A stretch of 64,000 nt of DNA from an uncultured delta proteobacterium (GCA_963848135.1 CAWKCK010000002.1:248001-312000); one strand, 5' to 3'; counted from the stretch's first letter, positions 48,207 through 59,654 are shown. The notes: generated by a model not told the origin, from the sequence alone. Translations and numbers: made by a program.

Positions 48207-50039
48207 ATGTTTGCAAATTTTATCTACTTTATCATCGTTCTACTCATATATTCCACCTATCAACCTGTGGCGGAGGCCAATTTTTCACCGCTCAATACGG
48301 CCTTTTACTTTATCGGTGTGCATTTCCTGTTTGCTTACTTGTGTTGGGCCCTGTTCAGGCGTTTGGTTCGCCGTACCAGCAGAGAAAATTTTGTCAACCT
48401 CGGCCATGGATTTGACACCCTTCTCACCCGGCTGTCGATTTTGGCGATCATACTCTTTGCCATCGATATCTACGGATTGAATTTACCTTCATTTTTAGCC
48501 CCACTACCGGTTTTTTCCAAATGGCCAACCTTTATGGCTTTACTGTTTCTGGCCCTGTTCATTTCCTCTCTGGCCATCGTTTGGTCCTGCGCTTACGACA
48601 CCTACCGGCATTTCTATGCCTCGGACATATCGCGCGCGTCCTACGTGTGGTCACAAATCTCTTTCTCGATACCTGTATTGCTTCCGTGGCTTGTCCTTTC
48701 GGGCATCACCGACCTCATCAATGCCCTGCCCTTGATTCGGCTGCAAAAACTGTTGGCCACGACGGAGGGCTCCGTTGTGTACTTTTTATTTTTTTTGGTC
48801 ATTGTTGCCGTTATCGGGCCGACGATGATTCAGAAGTTCTGGCGCTGCCGGCCAATGGAGAACGGCATAAACCGAAAACGTATCGAATCCCTCTGCCACA
48901 GGGCTGAACTTGAGTATAACAATATCCTTTACTGGCCGATCTTCGGTGGACGAATGATAACCGCCGGAGTCATGGGCCTTGTGAAGTATTTTCGCTACAT
49001 CCTTGTAACCCATGCCCTTTTGCGTCAATTGGAACCGGATGAAATCGATGCGGTCATCGCACACGAAATCGGCCACATCAAACGCCACCATCTCGTTTTT
49101 TATCTGATCTTTTTTGCCGGTTTTATGATCATCACATACGCTACCTACGACTTGATCGTCTATGCCGTGATCTATGCCGAACCGATGTTTGAATTCTTCA
49201 CCCGATTCGGGTTTAACCCAGTGACCATGACATCAATTTTTCTGAGCGTCAGCATGGTATTCATTTTCTTAATCTATTTTCGTTTCTTATTCGGATACTT
49301 CATGCGTAACTTCGAGCGCCAGGCAGACGGCTACGTATATGCTTTGTTTGACACGGCACGACCGCTCATAACGACGCTGGAAAAAATCGCCTTTACAAGC
49401 GGACAACCTCCGGACCGTCCCAACTGGCATCATTTCAGTATCTCAGAGCGCATCAGATATCTGAACAATTGCGAAGCCGATCGCGCCACTGTCAACCGCC
49501 ACGATCGTAAAGTCAAAAAAAGCATTTCCATGTTTGTTGCCGGTCTTGTTCTCGTGGGAGCAGTGGGGTATTCGCTCAATTTTGGTGAAACCGGAAAGCA
49601 GTTGAGCACGCATTTCTTTGAAAAGCTCATTCTCAGGGAAATCGAAAAACATCCTCTCAACCCGAACCTGCACAAAACACTCGGCGACCTCTATTACGAA
49701 ACAGGCAACTTTGACGGTGTAAGGCAGGCTTACGAAACCTCACTGAAAATCAACCCCAATAACCCCCACGTCCTCAACAACCTGGCCTGGCTGTATGCCA
49801 CTGCGGAGAACCCCCGTTTCCGCAATCCGCAAAGGGCTTTGACTTTGGCAATGGCGGCCGCCGCCATCATTGAGGAACCTCACATCCTGGACACATTGGC
49901 CGAAGCCTATTACATCAACGGTATTTATCCCAAAGCTCTCGAAGCGGCGCTGCGCGCCCAGCGGTTGGCGCGGGACAACCACGCCTACTATCAGGAACAA
50001 GTTGACAAGTTCAGAAGAGCGGCGGGTCCGGCGGTCTGA
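48207..50039 (+). CDS. M48 family membrane zinc metalloprotease with C-terminal TPRs
   Basis: AHEIGH, RNFERQAD and multiple TMs; LNNLAW and LDTLAEAY TPR motifs. Confidence 0.9.
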   Translation: MFANFIYFIIVLLIYSTYQPVAEANFSPLNTAFYFIGVHFLFAYLCWALFRRLVRRTSRENFVNLGHGFDTLLTRLSILAIILFAIDIYGLNLPSFLAPLPVFSKWPTFMALLFLALFISSLAIVWSCAYDTYRHFYASDISRASYVWSQISFSIPVLLPWLVLSGITDLINALPLIRLQKLLATTEGSVVYFLFFLVIVAVIGPTMIQKFWRCRPMENGINRKRIESLCHRAELEYNNILYWPIFGGRMITAGVMGLVKYFRYILVTHALLRQLEPDEIDAVIAHEIGHIKRHHLVFYLIFFAGFMIITYATYDLIVYAVIYAEPMFEFFTRFGFNPVTMTSIFLSVSMVFIFLIYFRFLFGYFMRNFERQADGYVYALFDTARPLITTLEKIAFTSGQPPDRPNWHHFSISERIRYLNNCEADRATVNRHDRKVKKSISMFVAGLVLVGAVGYSLNFGETGKQLSTHFFEKLILREIEKHPLNPNLHKTLGDLYYETGNFDGVRQAYETSLKINPNNPHVLNNLAWLYATAENPRFRNPQRALTLAMAAAAIIEEPHILDTLAEAYYINGIYPKALEAALRAQRLARDNHAYYQEQVDKFRRAAGPAV

Positions 50040-50050
50040 CGCCATGATAT

Positions 50051-50755
50051 TCAGACAGGAAGAATGACGCGGTGAAAGGCTTCGGCCAATTCGAAGGGCT
50101 CGTCCTTGGCCATTTCACGACAACGCTGCCGAAGCCATGATTCTAAATCGGCAATGCCGAGTTCTATGACCTGGCTGGCATGGCATCGCAGCGCGGCCAG
50201 TTTGATATCAAAGGTATCCGTGATATCGGACCGGTAGTTCACGTCTTCTGCTGCCCAGAAAAGCAACTCTCGAACTTTATGGGGTTCCAAACCTTCAGCC
50301 AACATGTCCGGGTAAGCCAGATGATCCCTGGCGTATGGAAATACAGCGTCCATAACGACCTGTCCGGTAATTCGGTGGTCACGATGCCAGATGTAGCGGC
50401 GGTAGGGATCTGTGGTCGTCACCGTCCGGGGACGGTATTTTCGGATAATTCGGACGATTTCTTTGCGAAATTTCGTCGTGTCTTCCAACGCCTGATCGGG
50501 AAATCCAAGGAATTCCAGTCGTTCAACTCCTAATAGAGCGGCAGCGGCTTTTTGTTCTTGTTTCCGAATTTCAGTCAGATCTTGAGAAGACAAACTGCGA
50601 TCAGTGGTTCCTTTGTCTCCCGTCGTGCAAACAACATACACCACGCGTCTGCCGGTCCTGGTCCAGTTTGCAACCGTTCCAGCCGCCCCGAATTCGGCAT
50701 CATCCGGATGGGGCGAAATGACCACAGCATCGATTTCATCCATTCCCTCTCTCAT
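50051..50755 (-). CDS. PIG-L/LmbE family N-acetyl deacetylase (MshB/BshB/Mca-like)
   Basis: PHPDD, TTGD.G, R..E...A, HRDH and K..AL..H.SQ; ATGA overlap with the upstream GT. Confidence 0.92.
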   Translation of the reverse strand: MREGMDEIDAVVISPHPDDAEFGAAGTVANWTRTGRRVVYVVCTTGDKGTTDRSLSSQDLTEIRKQEQKAAAALLGVERLEFLGFPDQALEDTTKFRKEIVRIIRKYRPRTVTTTDPYRRYIWHRDHRITGQVVMDAVFPYARDHLAYPDMLAEGLEPHKVRELLFWAAEDVNYRSDITDTFDIKLAALRCHASQVIELGIADLESWLRQRCREMAKDEPFELAEAFHRVILPV

Positions 50756-52017
50756 GTCATACCTCCTGAGTTGCAAATGCGAGTGTATTCTTCTGATAGC
50801 GCCGCGGCAACAGCCGGCCATCCATACTGGTGGACTGTAGCGCGGATCTCGTTGCGGGCCCCAGGTGTCTGTCCGGTTTCGGGAGTAAAAAGGAGCCTTC
50901 CAATACCCGCCGCCAGGGACTCTGAACCGGCAGCATTCACAATGTATCCGTTGCGATCATTTGTGAGAAGACTATCGGCAGCACCTACCGGTGTGGAAAC
51001 TACCGGCGTTCCACAGGCGAGGGCTTCGAGCACAACCAAACCGAAACTTTCATATCGGGAGGGGACAACCAGTAGGTCTGCAGCGCTGTAATAGATCGGC
51101 AGATGTTCCCGTTCGACCCGTCCTGCGAATTTGACATATTCCTGCAGTTCTAAAGCACGGACGACCTTTCGCAGGCGTCTTTCTTCAGCAGTTCGGGGCC
51201 CGTCTCCGCCGACAATGATTACCTGGACGTTTTGCCGTCGCATTAAAATGGCCACGGCCTCTAACAGGCGGTCAATCCCCTTGAGCGGTTCGAAACGACC
51301 GACATAGAGCAAAATCGAATCCCCGCGCGCATAACCGAGTGCCTGCCGGGCCGCAAACGTATCCCTCGGCCGAAACACTTCCAAATCGACGCCGCAGGGG
51401 ACAATCGCCACCTTTTCCGGTGCGGCATCATAGAAGCGCTTGAGTTGTTCTTTCTCCCTTTCTGTTGCGGAAATAATCCGATGGCATTCGTGAACCAGTT
51501 GTCTCTCCGTTGCGAGACGAATAACCGGTTCCGGCTTGCCGATGCCGATACTGTTCTTCATAGCGGCCAAGGTGTGAAAGGTAATCACATGCGGTTTTTC
51601 CCAGTGCTCCTGCGCCATCTTGCCGAGACATCCGGACAACCAGTAATGGCTATGAATCACATCGTAACCGATCGAGTGCCGGTTCCGAAAAGTTTCCATT
51701 TCCTTGAAAAAAATCGGCACTTGTCGATAAAATGCTGCTGGGGTTTTACGTCCGCCGCCGCTGCTTAATCGAATTAGATTGACATTTTTCCCCAGCGATA
51801 TGATCGCTTCCTCAGCCCCCCCTGTCCGGCCGGTATAGATATCTACCGAGTGTCCCAATCGCCCCAGTTCCAGCGCAACATCCCGGATATATACACTCAT
51901 GCCGCCCGTATCCCGTGTGCCCAATTTTCCGATCGGACTCGAGTGAAGGCTGAGCATGGCAATGCTGAGGGAATTTTTCGGTGATGAATGGTTTTTTTTC
52001 GGTATTCGTCCGGCCAT
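50752..52017 (-). CDS. GT4 glycosyltransferase, MshA-like
   Basis: AMLSLHSSP...DTGGMSVY, YDVIHSHYWLSG, TFHTL and YESFGLVVLEALACG. Confidence 0.85.
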   Translation of the reverse strand: MAGRIPKKNHSSPKNSLSIAMLSLHSSPIGKLGTRDTGGMSVYIRDVALELGRLGHSVDIYTGRTGGAEEAIISLGKNVNLIRLSSGGGRKTPAAFYRQVPIFFKEMETFRNRHSIGYDVIHSHYWLSGCLGKMAQEHWEKPHVITFHTLAAMKNSIGIGKPEPVIRLATERQLVHECHRIISATEREKEQLKRFYDAAPEKVAIVPCGVDLEVFRPRDTFAARQALGYARGDSILLYVGRFEPLKGIDRLLEAVAILMRRQNVQVIIVGGDGPRTAEERRLRKVVRALELQEYVKFAGRVEREHLPIYYSAADLLVVPSRYESFGLVVLEALACGTPVVSTPVGAADSLLTNDRNGYIVNAAGSESLAAGIGRLLFTPETGQTPGARNEIRATVHQYGWPAVAAALSEEYTRICNSGGMT

Positions 52018-52024
52018 GGCGCAT

Positions 52025-53077
52025 TCAGTCCAGATCGACCCGGCAATTATACAGCTGAAGCGGTCTGCCTCCCAATCTCTTCTTGTAGATTTCACCGCCT
52101 TTCAGAAAATCATACGCCTTCAACCCGGACTGAATCCCGTCTTTGAGACTGAGGACCTTACTCAAAAACCCGACGCTCAAACGACTGAATTGTTGATCAT
52201 AGGCGTTATTGTAGAGATATCGCGTTGATCGGAAGTCAATACACATCACCACAGCAGCAGGAACCGCATCGATCTTGAGCGTGAAAAGTTTGAGCATGCC
52301 ATTTTCTGCCAACCCCTTCGCCAAAGCACGAAAAAATCCGGTCATCTGATGGGTCATGAATGCGGCCTTGTGCGGGTGATTTTGTCGGAAAAGTTTTAGA
52401 AAGATATCCATTACCCTGCCGGTATCCACAGGTTTATCAGCCAAGACATATGAAACGATGCCGGCTTCGTAAAGTCGTCTGAGTTTTCGCCGGATTTCGT
52501 GCCTTTGCTTTGCCGGCAACTGCAGGAGATATTTATCCCAAGTATCTGGAAGCTTAAGAGCCAAGCTCACATCTTGAGCCTGGGATGAGATCTGGCATCC
52601 CAGGTTTACAGCCATGTCCTTAAAAACCGTCAGGATGGACGAGTCGGACCGGACGTGTTCCAACCGCAAATATTGGACGCTTTGGCGGCGAAGATCCCTT
52701 ACCAGGCATGCAAAAAAATCTGTTTCCCTTCCGGGTGCAATCACAAAATCCAGATAATCACAAACCGATGTGTCCCCCGCAAATGAGGCGCAATGGCAAT
52801 TGTGATCGATCATCAGCGCCGCAACGCCGACAACGTCATCCGCGACCCTTACAGCTCTCAAATAAGGGATTGCCGTGCCGTTGAAGCGGTCTATCCACGC
52901 CTTCAGCCACGGCGGAGACACAAACAAGCAATGCCAAGGGAGACGATTGTCATGATCGGCCCAGAGTCTCGTAAGGCTGTCGAGAGTTTCTTCCGTGATG
53001 TGATCTGGGCCGCTGGTTAACCGGCCTATTTCAGGAATTTTCTTCAATGTGACATAGGTATGTGTGCTATGCGGCAT
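52025..53077 (-). CDS. GNAT family protein (CelD/BcsL, Acetyltransf_6 type)
   Basis: F.SP.W..AW, DYLD, LP..W..YL..L..K.R..IRRK.RRL, LSVG and DFLKGGE.YK. Confidence 0.88.
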   Translation of the reverse strand: MPHSTHTYVTLKKIPEIGRLTSGPDHITEETLDSLTRLWADHDNRLPWHCLFVSPPWLKAWIDRFNGTAIPYLRAVRVADDVVGVAALMIDHNCHCASFAGDTSVCDYLDFVIAPGRETDFFACLVRDLRRQSVQYLRLEHVRSDSSILTVFKDMAVNLGCQISSQAQDVSLALKLPDTWDKYLLQLPAKQRHEIRRKLRRLYEAGIVSYVLADKPVDTGRVMDIFLKLFRQNHPHKAAFMTHQMTGFFRALAKGLAENGMLKLFTLKIDAVPAAVVMCIDFRSTRYLYNNAYDQQFSRLSVGFLSKVLSLKDGIQSGLKAYDFLKGGEIYKKRLGGRPLQLYNCRVDLD

Positions 53078-53118
53078 TCTTTTTGATTCTTGCTGGTGAA
53101 TTCAGAACCGAAATGGGG

Positions 53119-54150
53119 TCACTCGCATTCGTCGGTCCGACGCAGCGCAGCGGTTTTCCCGCTCCTTGCCGCTTCTGCCAGCGCGTCCAGTACTCGCATG
53201 TTGGCCATACTGTCAGTGACCGGATATGCCGGTTCAATCCTTTCTCTGATGACATCCGCAAAATGTTCGACCATCAGCTGGTATTCGTCAACACCGGCAA
53301 CGACAATTTCCTCTCCGTACTCCTCGGCTGGTCCTCGCAACCAGTAAAGCGCATCCTTTTCCCAGGGAATAAAAGCATTGTGAGGCAGCTCAATGGCACC
53401 ATCACGCCCAATAACGCTGTAAGTCTGCTGAAGTGCCGAATCGAAACTGACTTCCAGACATCCCATGGCACTATTGGGAAAAACCAAGTTCCCTACCAGG
53501 TGTATGTCCACTCCGGCAGAGTTAAATACCGCCTGGGCCTGTACATGGGTGGGTTCGCCTTCGAAAAGCCACCGGGCCAGGCTGACACCGTAGCAACCGA
53601 CATCCAGAAGGGCTCCTCCACCGGTTTCCGGTTTGAGACGAAAATTGGTGCCCTCTGCTATCACTTTACTGTCCATACGATAACAGAACGCTGTTCGTAC
53701 CAGACGAGGATCACCGATGCTGCCGGCGCTGATCAGCTGCTTGATTCGCCGACTGCGGGGATGAAAACGATACATCAACGCCTCCATGAGCAACAGATTT
53801 GATGCGGCAGCGCTACGTATCATTTCTTCGGCTTCCAGAGCATTGCAGGCTAACGGTTTTTCGCACAATACCGGCTTACCCGCTTTTAAACAATTGAGTG
53901 TCCAAGGAAGGTGCAGATGGTTCGGTAGGGGAAGGTAAACAGCATCGACATTTCGATCCGCCAGCAGAGCTTTGTAACCTTCGTAAAAGTACGGTATCCC
54001 ATACTTACGGGCGACATCCCGAGCAGTCGCCGGTGACCGCGACGCCAGTGCGTGAACAACACCGTTGCGAGATTTCTGAATCGCTGGAATAACGCACACA
54101 CGGGCGATCGTGGCATTACCCATGACACCCCAGCGGATGGGTTCAGTCAT
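53119..54150 (-). CDS. Gfo/Idh/MocA family oxidoreductase
   Basis: WGVMG.A.IA, AVY..LPN..H, VLCEKP and GGGALLDVGCY; 8-nt overlap with the upstream gene. Confidence 0.92.
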   Translation of the reverse strand: MTEPIRWGVMGNATIARVCVIPAIQKSRNGVVHALASRSPATARDVARKYGIPYFYEGYKALLADRNVDAVYLPLPNHLHLPWTLNCLKAGKPVLCEKPLACNALEAEEMIRSAAASNLLLMEALMYRFHPRSRRIKQLISAGSIGDPRLVRTAFCYRMDSKVIAEGTNFRLKPETGGGALLDVGCYGVSLARWLFEGEPTHVQAQAVFNSAGVDIHLVGNLVFPNSAMGCLEVSFDSALQQTYSVIGRDGAIELPHNAFIPWEKDALYWLRGPAEEYGEEIVVAGVDEYQLMVEHFADVIRERIEPAYPVTDSMANMRVLDALAEAARSGKTAALRRTDECE

Positions 54151-55795
54151 CGACCCCCTCCATCCGGCCTCCAGCGGCGGCCGATTTGACCGCAGCCTCC
54201 AAAATCGCCACCACACGAACAGAGTCCGTTAAAGGCGCAGCAACGGGTTCTCCCAAAAGGATGTGATCGGCAAGGTTGCAATGAAACTGATAGTGTTGCC
54301 GTTCAGGCTGAGCCATGTTCTGGCGAACAATTTGGCCCGTCGAATGGCGGCGGTAGAGTCGCAATTCCGGTGTCATCTCGGTAGGCGGTATGCTGTCCTT
54401 CTGGTAGTAGTGCAGCGGATCGGTGCTATATGAATCCACATCGCGCCAATTTCCAATGATGGCCCCTTTTGTCCCTAAAAGGTACCACTTAGGCTTGCGC
54501 ACGGCCGCAATGTCTGAATGCATGAATTCGGCCTCTTTCCCGCTGGTAAAGCGGATGACAATCCGTTCCTGATCAGCATTGGTGACATCGTGCCAGACGC
54601 GTTTGTGACGGGATGCGCTGACCGATGCCACCGGTTCCGGAATCAGACTGACCACCCAGTCAAGATAATGTGCTCCCCAGTCGTAAGTTGTGCCGCCAGA
54701 TATCGGGGCATGCGAGTGCCAATATCCACAAGGATGTGAGAATCCACCGATAAATGTTTCCATGTAAAAAAGTTCACCGATCAAATCCTTTTTCAATGCG
54801 TCTTTTATGGTTAGGTAGTCAACGTCCCAACGCCGGTTCTGATGGCATCCGAGGTAGAGCTTTCCGTTATCGGCCGTTTGTGACATTGCATCCGTTTCTT
54901 TCCGGCTGAGGGCCAGCGGTTTTTCACATACGACATGCTTGCCCGAGGCCATCATTTTAATGGATAGATCTGCGTGGGTGTTAGGCGGCGTGGCCACGAT
55001 GACCAGGTCCACTTCGGGATCGCTCCCAAAGGCTTCGGCGTTATCGTAAACGTTGAGTCCTGCAAAATCGATTTGCGCTTGAGCCCGCCGATGGGGATTT
55101 AGATCGCAGACCGCTTTCAAATCCAAACCGGCCGTCTTCTCCGCACCTAGCCCGTGAAGTTGTCCAACTGATGGCGCATACCCGAGAATGCCGATTCCCA
55201 GAGTTCTCTTCGTTTCAAAAGCGCCTGCCAGTTCACGTATCAATCGATAGAGGATGCGTTGAAATGTTGGATGCTCGTAAGCGGTCATGGTGGTTACCGC
55301 CACGGTGCCGTCGCCAGACCGCCGCCGCACCAACACCGGATTGTGACTGTAGTTCCAATCGGCATAGAGCAGCACTTCCGCATCGTTTTTCAGGCATTTC
55401 ACAGGACGGTGGGTGCCCATGAGGTATACCGCATCCGGCAGACGCGCCGCCATCTGGTGCTCCGGGTCGCTGAAAAGCACCCGCAATTCCGTATGAGGAC
55501 CCGGTGGACCGATATGCACTCCAAAAATGTCTGGAAGGGATATTTTACCATCCGGGTTCAAAACCAGCCAACCACCGCCAGTCCGAACGTAATCCCGTAG
55601 TGTTTCTTGTTCGGCCTGGTTTAACGTCATTCCGACGCTTATCACAGCGTTGGCGTCGTTCAGTCCCTTGGGCAAGTCCGCCCGGACAGACACGCGTATA
55701 TGCACCATGTTTTGCAAGTACGTTTTTAATGGCGCCCATGCGGCACCATCGTCTTCAGCAACGATCAACACGTCAAATGATGGATGATTGAGCAT
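54143..55795 (-). CDS. Class I GATase-like/ThuA-like domain fused to a Gfo/Idh/MocA oxidoreductase
   Basis: N-terminal L..YV..GGG...L and G.G.V pattern; C-terminal IGILGY, ATPP..H, HVVCEKP, QNRRWD and DWGAH. Confidence 0.85.
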   Translation of the reverse strand: MLNHPSFDVLIVAEDDGAAWAPLKTYLQNMVHIRVSVRADLPKGLNDANAVISVGMTLNQAEQETLRDYVRTGGGWLVLNPDGKISLPDIFGVHIGPPGPHTELRVLFSDPEHQMAARLPDAVYLMGTHRPVKCLKNDAEVLLYADWNYSHNPVLVRRRSGDGTVAVTTMTAYEHPTFQRILYRLIRELAGAFETKRTLGIGILGYAPSVGQLHGLGAEKTAGLDLKAVCDLNPHRRAQAQIDFAGLNVYDNAEAFGSDPEVDLVIVATPPNTHADLSIKMMASGKHVVCEKPLALSRKETDAMSQTADNGKLYLGCHQNRRWDVDYLTIKDALKKDLIGELFYMETFIGGFSHPCGYWHSHAPISGGTTYDWGAHYLDWVVSLIPEPVASVSASRHKRVWHDVTNADQERIVIRFTSGKEAEFMHSDIAAVRKPKWYLLGTKGAIIGNWRDVDSYSTDPLHYYQKDSIPPTEMTPELRLYRRHSTGQIVRQNMAQPERQHYQFHCNLADHILLGEPVAAPLTDSVRVVAILEAAVKSAAAGGRMEGVDD

Positions 55796-55808
55796 ATTCT
55801 GAACACCT

Positions 55809-57083
55809 TTACGGGCGGTGGGGTTCCGCGTCTGCTGATCGCCAGCGGGCCCCGTCTGGTGTATCTTCGATAACCAGCCCGATTCGCTCCAGACCGGTGC
55901 GGACGGCATCCGCCGCCGCCCATTGCCTGTTTTGCCGGAAAGAGTTCCGCAAGGCGATCAGTTCATTAATCATCGGAATCAATACGGCGACCGGGTCTGA
56001 GGGCGCTGGTTGTAATTTCGGCCCGAGCAGAACGATTAAATCCCGCAGTGTTTCCCGGCCCTGGGAAATGAATTCCTCGCTTTCCAAATCCTCCTGGGCC
56101 TGCCAAAGGATTCGATCCAATTCCAGCAGGGCGTTGACGATTCTTTTGGGGTCATCCTGCTCGATACCGGTAAGAAAAGTTTCCCGGAGTGAATGTATGG
56201 TATCCCAGAATCGAGACTCCGAATATTTGGTTTCCGTCGGTCGTGTCTTTTGATTTTTCGGTGATGCTTTCGTTCGCTCGCCGGAAATTAACGGATCTTT
56301 GATGAAATCTAAAGGAAATCGATCTCCCTTCTCGAAGACCATTTCACGGTCACCTTGGCGGAGTAAAACCTTTCCGAGTCCCTGGACCCTGGCTTCAAAT
56401 GGTTCAAGGTCTAAAGTGCAAGATGTGTGTTCATCGATGCCGATAATCGTCACGTCTTCGGGTAGCATTGCGGCCAGACTATTGAAGCGTAATTCACCCA
56501 TAAAGCAAAACCGGGTATCATGGGTTCCTCCTTCGGCATTGTTCCAATGCGGCACAACAACCAGGTTAAAGCCCAAGGCACCAAGGATGTCCGTTCCGTC
56601 CACCCAGTGAAGGTCCTGGCCGACTTTGTAGATTTCATAGACCGGCAAGGTCAAGCGGCCCATAGTGAGAGCGGCCGCACTGGCCGCCACCAGGCAACCG
56701 CCACTGCGAACCCTGTTCGCCAGGATTCCAGGAATTGGCGACGCTTGAAGCTGGCGAATAGTGTACGTCGGGCTACCGGGGCCAATCAAAATATAATCGG
56801 CCTCGCGCAACTGATGATACGCTGTTTCGGCATCAAAACCAGTTATATCTTTCGCTGATCTGAAAGAAGCGATCGTCAGGGGATAACCAAGATGATTTTC
56901 GAAATAATCCGTTGCTCTGCGGCAGATCTGTGCCACATTGAGTTGAAAACCGGCCGGCGTATCCAGAAAAACCGCTTTCGGCGATGTCCCGATCCTTTTC
57001 AGTTGCTCCTTGTGAACTTCAACCATTGTGGCCGTAAGTTCCCCGGAGCCCATGAGAATGACGGCGCCTTGTCGAGAGTTCAT
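55809..57083 (-). CDS. Peptidase S51/cyanophycinase-like domain fused to a CysRS DALR/anticodon-binding C-terminal domain
   Basis: LMGSGE, GPGSP, AASAAA (nucleophile Ser), VPHW and GIDEHT; tail LIALRNSFRQNRQWAAADAVRTGLERIGLVIEDTPDGARWR. Confidence 0.8.
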   Translation of the reverse strand: MNSRQGAVILMGSGELTATMVEVHKEQLKRIGTSPKAVFLDTPAGFQLNVAQICRRATDYFENHLGYPLTIASFRSAKDITGFDAETAYHQLREADYILIGPGSPTYTIRQLQASPIPGILANRVRSGGCLVAASAAALTMGRLTLPVYEIYKVGQDLHWVDGTDILGALGFNLVVVPHWNNAEGGTHDTRFCFMGELRFNSLAAMLPEDVTIIGIDEHTSCTLDLEPFEARVQGLGKVLLRQGDREMVFEKGDRFPLDFIKDPLISGERTKASPKNQKTRPTETKYSESRFWDTIHSLRETFLTGIEQDDPKRIVNALLELDRILWQAQEDLESEEFISQGRETLRDLIVLLGPKLQPAPSDPVAVLIPMINELIALRNSFRQNRQWAAADAVRTGLERIGLVIEDTPDGARWRSADAEPHRP

Positions 57084-57349
57084 GACCTTTCCTTTGACCT
57101 TTTATGGCCGTAAAAGGATTGCTTTGCTGTCCTGATTGCCGGGTGATCAGGAACGATGGTTTCGACGCGTACGCTTAACGAAAGCGTCTTTAAAGGGATT
57201 TATCAGATTGTCCCACTGCCGGAGATATCAACCGGGTCAAAGGAATGCACCGAAACCATTAGCGCCCTGTTGCCCGGGTGTACTTGAGAATGATGCACTT
57301 GAAACGCTGAACAAACCTCTACCGTCCAAGCCACGTCTACCCCTTGCAG

Positions 57350-57634
57350 TTATGATCGGTCGTCCGGATTTTCTTTGGACAGGATTTTAAAATGAGTATA
57401 AATTTTTTTCCCACCGCCTGCTATCAGGATCACAGCCATCATGTAAAAACAAAAATAGACAAATCCGGAGGCAGCGGCAAACTGATCGATTTGGGTAATC
57501 TTCGGCATCACCTGCGGAATCCGGTAGATGACACCGATACCCGCCAGCACCAGTGCAACTCCCCATGCGACCTGCAACCGTGCCTTATTTTGAGACTCCT
57601 GTTTCACATTGACCTGCTTTTCGGCTGATAGCAT
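57350..57634 (-). CDS. Small two-TM hypothetical protein
   Basis: Two hydrophobic helices. Confidence 0.7.
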   Translation of the reverse strand: MLSAEKQVNVKQESQNKARLQVAWGVALVLAGIGVIYRIPQVMPKITQIDQFAAASGFVYFCFYMMAVILIAGGGKKIYTHFKILSKENPDDRS

Positions 57635-57710
57635 TATCCGCTGGGATGCATTGGGGTTTCATGACATGATGCCACCGGGCAAAATAAGCCGATCATCTCA
57701 TTTATGAAAT

Positions 57711-58634: not shown

Positions 58635-59540
58635 TCATTCGGACTGTTTTTCACTCGCCGATGTAATGTAGATTGCCAGTAGAATCAGTCCCCCGCCGAA
58701 CAGCTTCAAAACAGTCAAACCCTCGTTAAAGAGAACGTAAGCGAGGAGTGTGCCTATAATGGGTTCTCCAAGCAGGCTTACCGCGATCAAACTCGCACTG
58801 AACCACTTCAAAGCCCAGTTGTAGCTGGAATGTCCGATCAACTGGCTGACCAGTGCCATAGCGATAAACCAGGTGTAGGTTTGGCTGGAAAAACCGCTGA
58901 TCGGCAATCCCAGGCCTAGAACCAAGGTCCACAGAAAAATAGCGGCACCGGTATAGCAAAGACCAATGTATGCCAATACGGATAATCTGCGCCGCAGGCT
59001 GCGCCCTAACAGTAAATATCCGGCCGCACAGAGGCTTCCGGCCAGTGCCAGAGCATCCCCCCACAAGGCCTTTCCGCCGCTGGCAAAATCACCGGCACCG
59101 ATGATAACTCCCCCACTGACACTGAGAAGTATGCCGACAATGACACCGGTTTTCATGCGCTCTTTCGTTATCAGCGGCGTCAGCAATCCGACCCACAGAG
59201 GATTGGTATTGACCAGTACGACACTGTTGGCGACGGAAGTATACTTCAAAGAGTAAATCCAAGTCCCGAAGTGAAGCGCAAGAAACAGCCCTGACAATAA
59301 CGCAAGACCCAGATCGCGTCTCGAGAGTGAAAGCATTTCCCGCCGCACCTTCAGCCAAGCCAACGGAGCGATAATGAGACTGGCTATCCCAACACGGTAA
59401 GCAGCAATGACCAATGCCGGGGCTTCGCTTGCCAGTCGGGCAAAAATGGCACCGGTTGACACAGCAAAAACACCCAATAGCAGTGCAAAGTGCGGGTCAA
59501 AGGCCGGCGCGGCCGGAACGGTGAGGCGTGGTTCCGTCAT
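58635..59540 (-). CDS. DMT/EamA family transporter
   Basis: About 10 TMs; LALHF..W..SL.YTSVA and LLGEPI. Confidence 0.88.
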   Translation of the reverse strand: MTEPRLTVPAAPAFDPHFALLLGVFAVSTGAIFARLASEAPALVIAAYRVGIASLIIAPLAWLKVRREMLSLSRRDLGLALLSGLFLALHFGTWIYSLKYTSVANSVVLVNTNPLWVGLLTPLITKERMKTGVIVGILLSVSGGVIIGAGDFASGGKALWGDALALAGSLCAAGYLLLGRSLRRRLSVLAYIGLCYTGAAIFLWTLVLGLGLPISGFSSQTYTWFIAMALVSQLIGHSSYNWALKWFSASLIAVSLLGEPIIGTLLAYVLFNEGLTVLKLFGGGLILLAIYITSASEKQSE

Positions 59541-59654
59541 GGACGATATGGCATGATTAATTGCCGGATGGGGTATCGATAGTTTCAGCAACCGATTCTG
59601 AGGGATACGACCGGAATCCCACCGTCCCAGCGATGCGTTGGCTGTCCGACGTCG

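Follow-up and report, generated by a model that had tools for sequence, protein, structure and literature searches.

A conserved cassette with an S51 hydrolase–CysRS fusion as a candidate tRNA(Cys)-dependent pathway to a mycothiol-like thiol

How could cysteine be joined to an amino sugar by an operon that encodes a mycothiol-like glycosyltransferase and a deacetylase and, in the places of MshC and MshD, two proteins of other kinds? This question is raised by six co-directional open reading frames (ORFs) at positions 50051-57083, all on the minus strand, of a 64,000-nucleotide stretch of DNA from an uncultured delta proteobacterium (GCA_963848135.1, CAWKCK010000002.1:248001-312000), referred to here as the window. 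In the order of the operon, g1 encodes an S51 hydrolase domain fused to the C-terminal part of cysteinyl-tRNA synthetase (CysRS), g2 and g3 encode Gfo/Idh/MocA dehydrogenases, g4 a double-GNAT protein, g5 a GT4 glycosyltransferase and g6 a PIG-L family deacetylase. A preliminary description, made from the sequence alone, had seen in these genes an aminoacyl-sugar pathway of the mycothiol type. [quoted passage not shown] Fold, key-residue conservation, synteny and co-occurrence are matters of observation in what follows, and every substrate and product is one that we infer.

A CysRS module on an S51 hydrolase and a FemX-fold partner

The analysis of g1 with Pfam gave a match to CysS_C (PF23493) of 26.4 bits, above the cut-off of 23, and a match to Peptidase_S51 of 17.4 bits, below the cut-off of 23.9. 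The AlphaFold 2 (AF2) model, built from an alignment of 65 sequences (predicted local distance difference test, pLDDT, 81.5), comprises an N-terminal domain at residues 1-262, a disordered linker at 267-287 and a helical and small alpha/beta C-terminal part at about 293-417. Residues 1-261 match the S51 fold, with 6nqc at a Z-score of 26.4 (VIA structural re-alignment), cyanophycinase at Z 23.2-23.3 and PepE at Z 20.1. The fusion noticed in the preliminary description therefore stands, its CysRS part by a family score above the cut-off and its S51 part by structure, the S51 family score being sub-threshold.

The C-terminal part of g1 (residues 293-417) superposes on residues 332-461 of E. coli CysRS in its complex with tRNA (1u0b_B), with Z 8.6 over 117 residues and 25% identity. 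Profile comparison with the CysRS of the same genome aligns g1 346-412 to CysRS 395-459, and the cysS model covers only g1 residues 352-415 (model positions 401-464), with no match to the Class I catalytic Rossmann domain. Since this domain is absent, g1 would be unable to charge tRNA. The anticodon-interaction sites of E. coli CysRS, taken from 1U0B, are Arg427, Trp432, Asp436 and Arg439 according to an excerpt of a 2026 engineering paper (PMC13449415) in which these residues were mutagenised, and R383, W388, D392 and R395 of g1 align to these four positions in a phmmer alignment. D392 and R395 are invariant among the 65 sequences, and R383 and W388 are conserved in at least 90% of them. With the E. 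coli enzyme, g1 shares the C-terminal helical and anticodon-binding region and its four contact residues, but it resembles a CysRS in which an S51 hydrolase domain has taken the place of the catalytic Rossmann domain.

In the N-terminal domain, S135, H179 and E218 are invariant (65 sequences) and align to the Ser, His and Glu of an S51 peptidase; the same columns are likewise invariant in stand-alone S51 paralogues. The triad of PepE is Ser120-His157-Glu192 in an excerpt of a paper on this family (PMC9239234), which also describes that the S51 enzyme MccG cuts the aspartate-nucleotide bond in processed microcin C. By analogy, and as far as that excerpt goes, MccG is a precedent for the handling of an aminoacyl-nucleotide at an S51 site. 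The fold and the invariant Ser-His-Glu are common to g1 and the S51 peptidases (PepE, cyanophycinase and MccG), whereas the fused CysRS module, the Pfam S51 score below the cut-off and two family-specific, highly conserved insertions (LPVYEIYKVG, following the nucleophile, and HWNNAEGGTHDTRFC, following the His) set g1 apart. It is proposed that g1 is the tRNA(Cys)-specific component of the pathway, acting as a cysteinyl transferase, a carrier or a hydrolase. Its architecture is without a described counterpart in a full-text literature search that did not cover most subscription journals, and this search found neither the cassette nor an S51-CysRS fusion nor a tRNA-dependent sugar thiol described.

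The preliminary description had placed a plain GNAT in the MshD slot, and this assignment had to be replaced. The g4 protein matches Acetyltransf_6 in Pfam with 96.1 bits and, weakly, FemAB_like, and its AF2 model has a pLDDT of 93.3. The top 23 structural matches of the model, over residues 25-350 (Z 17.2-22.6, root-mean-square deviation, rmsd, 3.1-4.0; VIA re-alignment), are aminoacyl-tRNA-dependent transferases, together with 2hqy, a protein of unknown function. S. aureus FemX (6snr; Z 22.6, rmsd 3.7) and FemA (Z 22.2) are accompanied by streptothrisamine-bound Sbb17/Sba18 (Z 21.1-21.3, rmsd 3.3), W. viridescens FemX (Z 20.7-20.9) and lipid aminoacyl transferases of the MprF type (Z 17.2-19.5). 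Tandem GNATs that use acyl-CoA (clavulanate tandem GNAT, glucosamine N-acetyltransferase, VipF and MshD) give Z-scores of at most 15.1 with rmsd of 5-7, and the MshD structures themselves stand at Z 14.5 and 13.1 (rmsd 5.0-5.7). A sequence-profile search of g4 against PDB returned only chance-level matches (E 0.2 or worse). Judged from its predicted model, g4 fits an aminoacyl-tRNA-dependent transferase better than an analogue of MshD.

In an excerpt of a 2026 review (PMC12945691), the key residue is Lys305 in FemX(Wv) and Lys329 in DhpH-C. K332 of g4 is invariant in 51 sequences, within an invariant E-x-Y-K motif near the C-terminus, and lies roughly at the position of Lys305, as judged from the aligned ranges only (model 27-350, chain 1-325). 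In the same excerpt, Orf11 is described as acylating the amino sugar streptothrisamine in a Gly-tRNA-dependent reaction. The double-GNAT fold is common to g4 and Orf11/Sba18/Sbb17, and the proposed chemistry is alike, with the aminoacyl group passing from tRNA to the amine of an amino sugar. However, identity to g4 is only 12-13%, the pathway and acceptor differ, and g4 is instead partnered with a separate protein bearing a tRNA(Cys) anticodon-binding module. A sugar amine, or the amine of cysteine, is the proposed acceptor of g4. The earlier suggestion that the MshC and MshD slots hold different proteins is borne out in both cases, since g1 has only the C-terminal part of CysRS and g4 is FemX-like.

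Sugar-handling enzymes, spread and thiol context of the cassette

The best NCBIfam model for g5 is MshA (TIGR03449), with 299.7 bits, below the cut-off of 462.5. The next family reaches 134 bits, BshA 101.3 (cut-off 273.7) and the N-domain of sucrose-phosphate synthase 76.6. Against PDB, C. glutamicum MshA scores 230.8 bits, T. elongatus sucrose-phosphate synthase 213.7, PimA 67.5 and BshA 66.5. The enzyme is placed here by these hidden Markov model and PDB scores. As reported in the preliminary description, the MshA-type motifs HSSP...GGMSVY and IHSHYWLSG are present, and they align to C. glutamicum MshA. The g6 protein matches PIG-L (PF02585) with 122.6 bits, above the cut-off of 28.2, and an HPDD motif is seen in its translation. 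Its NCBIfam scores are all below the cut-offs: BshB1 106.4 bits (cut-off 182.5), BshB2 93.4, Mca 70.6 and MshB 46.9 (TIGR03445, cut-off 224.35).

The two dehydrogenases are less sharply placed. In g2, GFO_IDH_MocA is matched with 78 bits and ThuA with 20.8, below its cut-off of 33.4; the Gfo/Idh/MocA half of the ThuA-Gfo/Idh/MocA fusion described earlier holds, and the ThuA half is weak. Profile matches of g2 in PDB (3e18, the DgpA glycoside 3-dehydrogenases, YvaA and inositol dehydrogenases) cover residues of about 190-545 only. The Pfam match of g3 is also GFO_IDH_MocA, and its best NCBIfam scores, 145.9 bits on Gfo6 xylose dehydrogenase and 97.5 bits on IolG, do not reach the cut-offs. Given the likeness of g2 to glycoside 3-dehydrogenases, YvaA and inositol dehydrogenases, the pair probably modifies a cyclitol or a sugar, for example by conversion of myo- to scyllo-inositol or by C3 oxidation. 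This retains part of the idea that these enzymes make or modify the aglycone, which is itself most likely an inositol phosphate from a myo-inositol-1-phosphate synthase (Ino1) encoded elsewhere.

The family of g1 is large and without a characterised member. Of 8000 scored candidates 7995 matched, and the family has more than 7995 protein clusters. Identity is 54-94% among the 120 matches listed, whose only names are 'peptidase E', 'cyanophycinase-like' or 'CysS/YqeB C-terminal domain'. Species genomes with the gene number at least 590 and belong to several phyla, with loci in metagenome-assembled genomes (MAGs) labelled Desulfobacterales, Syntrophobacteria, Nitrospirota, Thermodesulfovibrionia, Nitrospinaceae and Deferrisomatales, in a Hyphomicrobiales bin and in others. 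In the ESM Atlas, clusters of g1-like proteins (410-440 aa, with CysS_C on 59-77% of members) have Actinomycetota or Chloroflexota as the commonest phylum, which raises the question of whether such proteins could replace MshC in some lineages.

The neighbourhood of g1 was analysed by tblastn with the six window proteins in the best 80 of the at least 590 g1 loci, 53 of which have at least 5 kb downstream of g1 and are informative. Conservation of the neighbourhood, proposed earlier as a check, is clear: 45 of the 53 carry at least one of g4, g5 and g6 with g1, 38 carry g4 and g5, and 32 carry all three. The pair g2 and g3 accompanies g1 in 22 of these loci, all six genes occur together in 11, and none of g2-g6 lies beside g1 in five. 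When present, g2 and g3 are always paired, mostly straight after g1 and before g4. As the pair occurs in only part of the loci, the core of the cassette is g1-g4-g5-g6, and the two dehydrogenases, which the preliminary description had included in the pathway, form an optional insert.

The five genomes with a lone g1 belong to Syntrophomonadaceae, Acidobacteriota, Aminicenantaceae and two MAGs of Desulfobacterota type. A g4 homologue is encoded elsewhere in all five, g5 directly adjoins g4 in four, and fragments of g6 lie at the edge of the locus in three. The neighbours of g1 in these five cassette-less loci have no common pattern.

Co-occurrence was followed in 401 genomes drawn evenly from the window's phylum, with cross-tabulations made by eye. 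At E 1e-30 or better, g1 is found in 51 of them, and it is found in none of 13 other genomes of the same order. Among the 51 g1-bearing genomes, 47 have g4 at E 1e-40 or better and 49 have Ino1, compared with 189 of the 350 g1-negative genomes; the two g1-bearing genomes without Ino1 are 85% and 90% complete. One lineage with g4 and without g1 carries a shorter S51-CysS_C protein of 370 aa, and the existence of this variant means that the threshold of E 1e-30 probably undercounts g1.

In this distant variant, homologues of g4 and of the GT4 enzyme lie again within about 1.5 kb of Ino1. At two such loci, L103 (G068:C9:392000-408000) and L104 (G197:C10), Ino1 adjoins genes for a GT4 enzyme with 26-29% identity to g5 and for a g4 homologue with 32-33% identity. 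The 370-aa S51-CysS_C protein of the variant is encoded elsewhere (L106:5058-6167), and PIG-L was not detected in the stretches of the variant loci that were examined. At a locus of another lineage (L105:5268-9715, G101:C4), the g4-like and GT4 genes directly follow those for an extracytoplasmic function (ECF) sigma factor and for an anti-sigma factor with zf-HC2, an arrangement that we take to be reminiscent of thiol-stress sigma/anti-sigma pairs.

Further neighbours were sought by clustering all ORFs of the 80 loci and annotating the recurrent families, with counts by tblastn. Ino1 is encoded in 12 of the 80 loci, a metallo-beta-lactamase hydrolase in 13 (best model the glyoxalase II GloB, 84.8 bits, below the cut-off), a HAD phosphatase in 11, a histidine phosphatase in 10 and a fusion of glutaredoxin and thioredoxin reductase (Grx-TrxR) in six, its N-domain scoring best on a mycoredoxin model (82.8 against a cut-off of 89.5). 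The most frequent is a stand-alone S51 paralogue (24/80), directly upstream of g1 in 23 of the 24. This protein of about 230 aa, with its Ser-His-Glu columns intact (for example L018:9277-9975 and L057:9299-9982), could be a partner of g1, an amidase or a turnover enzyme.

The genome to which the window belongs is 98.65% complete and encodes, away from the cassette, an S51 paralogue, a Grx-TrxR fusion, a histidine phosphatase and Ino1. It has two matches to PF01658 (Ino1), one of which scores 440.5 bits on TIGR03450, below the cut-off of 638. The S51 paralogue is unlinked to g1 (G000:C3:1031802-1032488; L093:4800-5534). The mycoredoxin-like Grx-TrxR fusion (72% identical; G000:C3:374794-376029) adjoins genes for a DinB_2 protein and a LysE exporter (L094:4792-7346), and this DinB_2 protein has weak best matches to a bacillithiol transferase and to a mycothiol-dependent isomerase domain. 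No match to BshC was found in the genome, nor was a gamma-glutamylcysteine ligase (neither PF04262 GshA nor PF04107 GCS2).

A search of the same genome with the cysS model returned the canonical CysRS and one CysK/M-CysRS fusion, which scores 166.5 on the MshC model TIGR03447 (cut-off 485.1). Of the families proposed earlier for profiling, MshC and BshC have no equivalent by score in this genome, g4 is by fold no MshD, and Ino1 is present. The CysK/M-CysRS fusion is a protein of 761 aa (CysK/M 355.7 bits and full CysRS 313.6 bits; G000:C18:219391-221670; L084:1495-3780, minus strand). As a supplier of Cys-tRNA to the cassette it was rejected, being full-length in 158 of the 401 genomes and in only 10 of the 51 that bear g1; it is also present in 11 of the 13 genomes of the same order without g1.

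Layout and surroundings of the operon

The six tightly coupled genes of the preliminary description were confirmed, both in their layout and in all five spacings (13, -8, 41, 7 and -4 nt from g1 to g6). Upstream of g1, a gap is followed by a small ORF and then by genes for an enoyl-CoA hydratase, an EamA transporter, an AmiC-type amidase and MutS. Downstream of g6 lies a convergent M48/TPR gene. The flanking gap and the convergent gene bound the operon as first given. Scans of 49800-57700 for consensus promoters and terminators found sites no more numerous than in shuffled sequences.

Table 1. Features of the operon and its upstream side, in window positions. Gene ends use the internal starts implied by the preliminary description.
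Feature	Position	Strand	Description
g1	55809-57083	minus	424 aa; S51 hydrolase domain and CysRS C-terminal part
g2	54143-55795	minus	550 aa; weakly ThuA-like N-terminal domain and Gfo/Idh/MocA
g3	53119-54150	minus	343 aa; Gfo/Idh/MocA dehydrogenase; 8-nt overlap with g2
g4	52025-53077	minus	350 aa; FemX-fold double-GNAT
g5	50752-52017	minus	421 aa; MshA-like GT4 glycosyltransferase
g6	50051-50755	minus	234 aa; PIG-L family de-N-acetylase; 4-nt overlap with g5
Upstream intergenic region	57084-57349	minus	266 nt; presumed operon promoter region
Small ORF	57350-57634	minus	94 aa; hydrophobic stretches
EamA-family transporter gene	58635-59591	minus	three ORFs upstream of g1

The small ORF, between the enoyl-CoA hydratase gene and the upstream gap, is without a Pfam match. 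Another EamA transporter directly adjoins g1 in an unrelated locus (L036:11391-12350). The proximity of EamA genes to g1 could be a coincidence, or the transporter could export the product or cysteine.

Proposed pathway and its alternatives

In the favoured pathway, Ino1 would supply inositol phosphate, to which g5, as the proposed UDP-GlcNAc:inositol-phosphate GlcNAc transferase, would move N-acetylglucosamine (GlcNAc) from UDP-GlcNAc. A phosphatase would strip the phosphate, and a histidine-phosphatase or HAD gene adjoins the cassette in other genomes. It is proposed that g6 then deacetylates GlcNAc-inositol to glucosaminyl-inositol (GlcN-inositol), which would expose the 2-amine. Cysteine would come from Cys-tRNA(Cys), with no ATP-dependent ligase of the MshC or BshC kind. 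The borrowed CysRS module would allow g1 to read the GCA anticodon and to present or process the cysteinyl ester at the S51 Ser-His-Glu site, and the FemX-type g4 would make an amide bond from aminoacyl-tRNA.

The labour of g1 and g4 could be divided in three ways. Firstly, g4 could make the Cys-GlcN amide, with g1 selecting or delivering tRNA(Cys). Secondly, g1 could transfer cysteine through an acyl-enzyme at Ser135, with g4 capping the amine of cysteine with a second residue, a counterpart of the acetylation in mycothiol. Finally, g1 could be a hydrolase that responds to tRNA(Cys) and adjusts the pool, and a proofreading role is also conceivable. A more specific proposal, which we consider rather unlikely as a whole, is that the S51 domain of g1 takes cysteine from Cys-tRNA(Cys) as a covalent acyl-enzyme and, together with g4, builds a hitherto unknown inositol-glucosamine thiol, on which many anaerobic members of Desulfobacterota, Nitrospirota and Nitrospinota rely as their main redox buffer. 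As part of that same proposal, g1 would found a new class of enzymes that depend on aminoacyl-tRNA, guided by a CysRS anticodon-binding module from which the synthetase core has been lost, and g4 would use a second aminoacyl-tRNA to add or cap a residue.

In its first steps the cassette is like the pathways to mycothiol and to bacillithiol, but it is a member of neither, as none of its proteins reaches the equivalog level of MshA-D or BshA-C. With mycothiol synthesis in Actinomycetota (Ino1, MshA, the MshA2 phosphatase, MshB, MshC and MshD) it has in common the logic of the first steps, MshA-like GT4 and PIG-L homologues and the dependence on inositol-phosphate synthase, and it often lies near a phosphatase gene and has mycoredoxin-like and glyoxalase-II-like genes in its neighbourhood. 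However, the cassette genome is without MshC, the cassette is without an MshD-type GNAT, and the cysteine donor would be Cys-tRNA instead of cysteine and ATP. With bacillithiol synthesis (BshA, BshB and BshC) it shares a GT4 enzyme, a PIG-L deacetylase that scores best on BshB1 and BshB2, and a cysteine-adding step; it differs in the low score of g5 on BshA, in the lack of BshC in its own genome and in a link to inositol rather than to malate. The part of the preliminary description that held up is the resemblance itself, with conservation across phyla, the link to Ino1, thiol-redox neighbours and retained CysRS contacts, while the product and the function are assigned conditionally.

Several points weigh against the thiol pathway. 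No metabolite or enzyme activity is known for it, and we infer each of its steps. Moreover, none of g5, g6 and Ino1 reaches its NCBIfam equivalog cut-off, and by single-sequence comparison g5 is nearly as close to sucrose-phosphate synthase as to MshA. The fit of g1 to CysRS has a large overall rmsd of 15.4, which, on the predicted model, is read as a hinge difference between sub-domains. There are two candidate catalysts of acyl transfer, g1 and g4, and this duplication is unexplained. Each kind of thiol-related neighbour is found in only a small part of the 80 loci (6-13) and scores below its family cut-off. Ino1 is common in the phylum regardless of g1, being present in 54% of g1-negative genomes, and its enrichment is overstated by the relatedness of the sampled genomes, which are not independent. 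A further 34 sampled genomes have a lower-scoring g4 homologue and no g1 at E 1e-30 or better. Finally, the genome encodes a GshB-like ATP-grasp protein (461 bits, against a cut-off of 408 for the NF009110 subfamily), which would allow for a gamma-glutamyl thiol; its gene (G000:C7:66862-67392; L091:1387-2433) adjoins that of a QEGLA-motif protein.

The alternative that survives best, an unlikely one in our view, keeps the sugar-cyclitol scaffold and gives it a non-redox product, a soluble aminoacyl-glucosaminyl-inositol or another glycoside for use as a compatible solute or for storage. The amino acid might then be other than cysteine, and the tRNA module of g1 would be regulatory, for example as a sensor of uncharged tRNA(Cys). 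The combination of GT4, Ino1 and phosphatase is also the logic of solute pathways derived from inositol or sugar phosphates, the similarity of g5 to sucrose-phosphate synthase fits such a product, and the organism comes from sediment metagenomes. Furthermore, FemX-type enzymes accept many aminoacyl-tRNAs, as stated in the excerpt of PMC12945691, and S51 enzymes, as far as the excerpted literature goes, are typically hydrolases. However, the conserved anticodon contacts, defined by the excerpted CysRS sites, indicate tRNA(Cys) specifically, and the recurrent mycoredoxin-like-TrxR and GloB-like neighbours suit a thiol better. In addition, the translationally coupled PIG-L protein implies that a free sugar amine is needed, and this is the site of acylation in mycothiol and bacillithiol.

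It is quite improbable that the product is a membrane lipid, with g5 and g6 making glucosaminyl-phosphatidylinositol, like PIG-A and PIG-L in glycosylphosphatidylinositol (GPI) synthesis, and with g4 aminoacylating the head group as MprF does on phosphatidylglycerol. PIG-L is indeed the family of the GPI GlcNAc-phosphatidylinositol deacetylase, the catalytic domains of MprF, A-PGS and L-PGS are among the structural matches of g4 (Z 17.2-19.5), and Ino1 is widespread in the phylum, as inositol lipids would require. Yet g5 is far nearer to MshA, which has a soluble substrate, than to the phosphatidylinositol mannosyltransferase PimA (230.8 against 67.5 bits), and the soluble-substrate enzymes FemX and Sbb17 outrank the MprF domains for g4. 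Family scans, with no transmembrane prediction run, found no membrane-protein domain in the six proteins, and the nearby phosphatases and soluble redox enzymes suit a soluble product.

An aminoacylated pseudo-disaccharide or aminocyclitol antibiotic, with g2 and g3 making an inosose-derived cyclitol and with parallels in streptothricin-type glycyl-tRNA chemistry and MshA/MshB-like aminoglycoside steps, is very improbable: the closest FemX-fold precedent on an amino sugar in the excerpted review is indeed Orf11/Sba18/Sbb17 of the BD-12 pathway, and inositol dehydrogenases of the Gfo/Idh/MocA family are typical of cyclitol tailoring, but the cassette has few genes, its core does not change across at least 590 species genomes of several phyla, g2 and g3 are dispensable in most loci, the six genes lie among housekeeping genes, and the recurrent neighbours in the 80 loci include no aminotransferase, resistance gene or dedicated exporter.

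The low-molecular-weight thiol that buffers the cytoplasm is poorly known for many strict anaerobes, including sulfate reducers, syntrophs, Nitrospirota and Nitrospinota. The cassette, with four core proteins and with g1 in at least 590 species genomes, is a widespread candidate pathway. If the tRNA(Cys)-dependent thiol pathway is true, it would represent a third solution to the ligation of cysteine in sugar thiols, besides that of MshC and that of BshC, which is still unresolved, and would recruit the machinery of translation for this step. An S51 hydrolase that carries a CysRS module would, in that case, extend the known range of tRNA-dependent enzymes that act outside translation.

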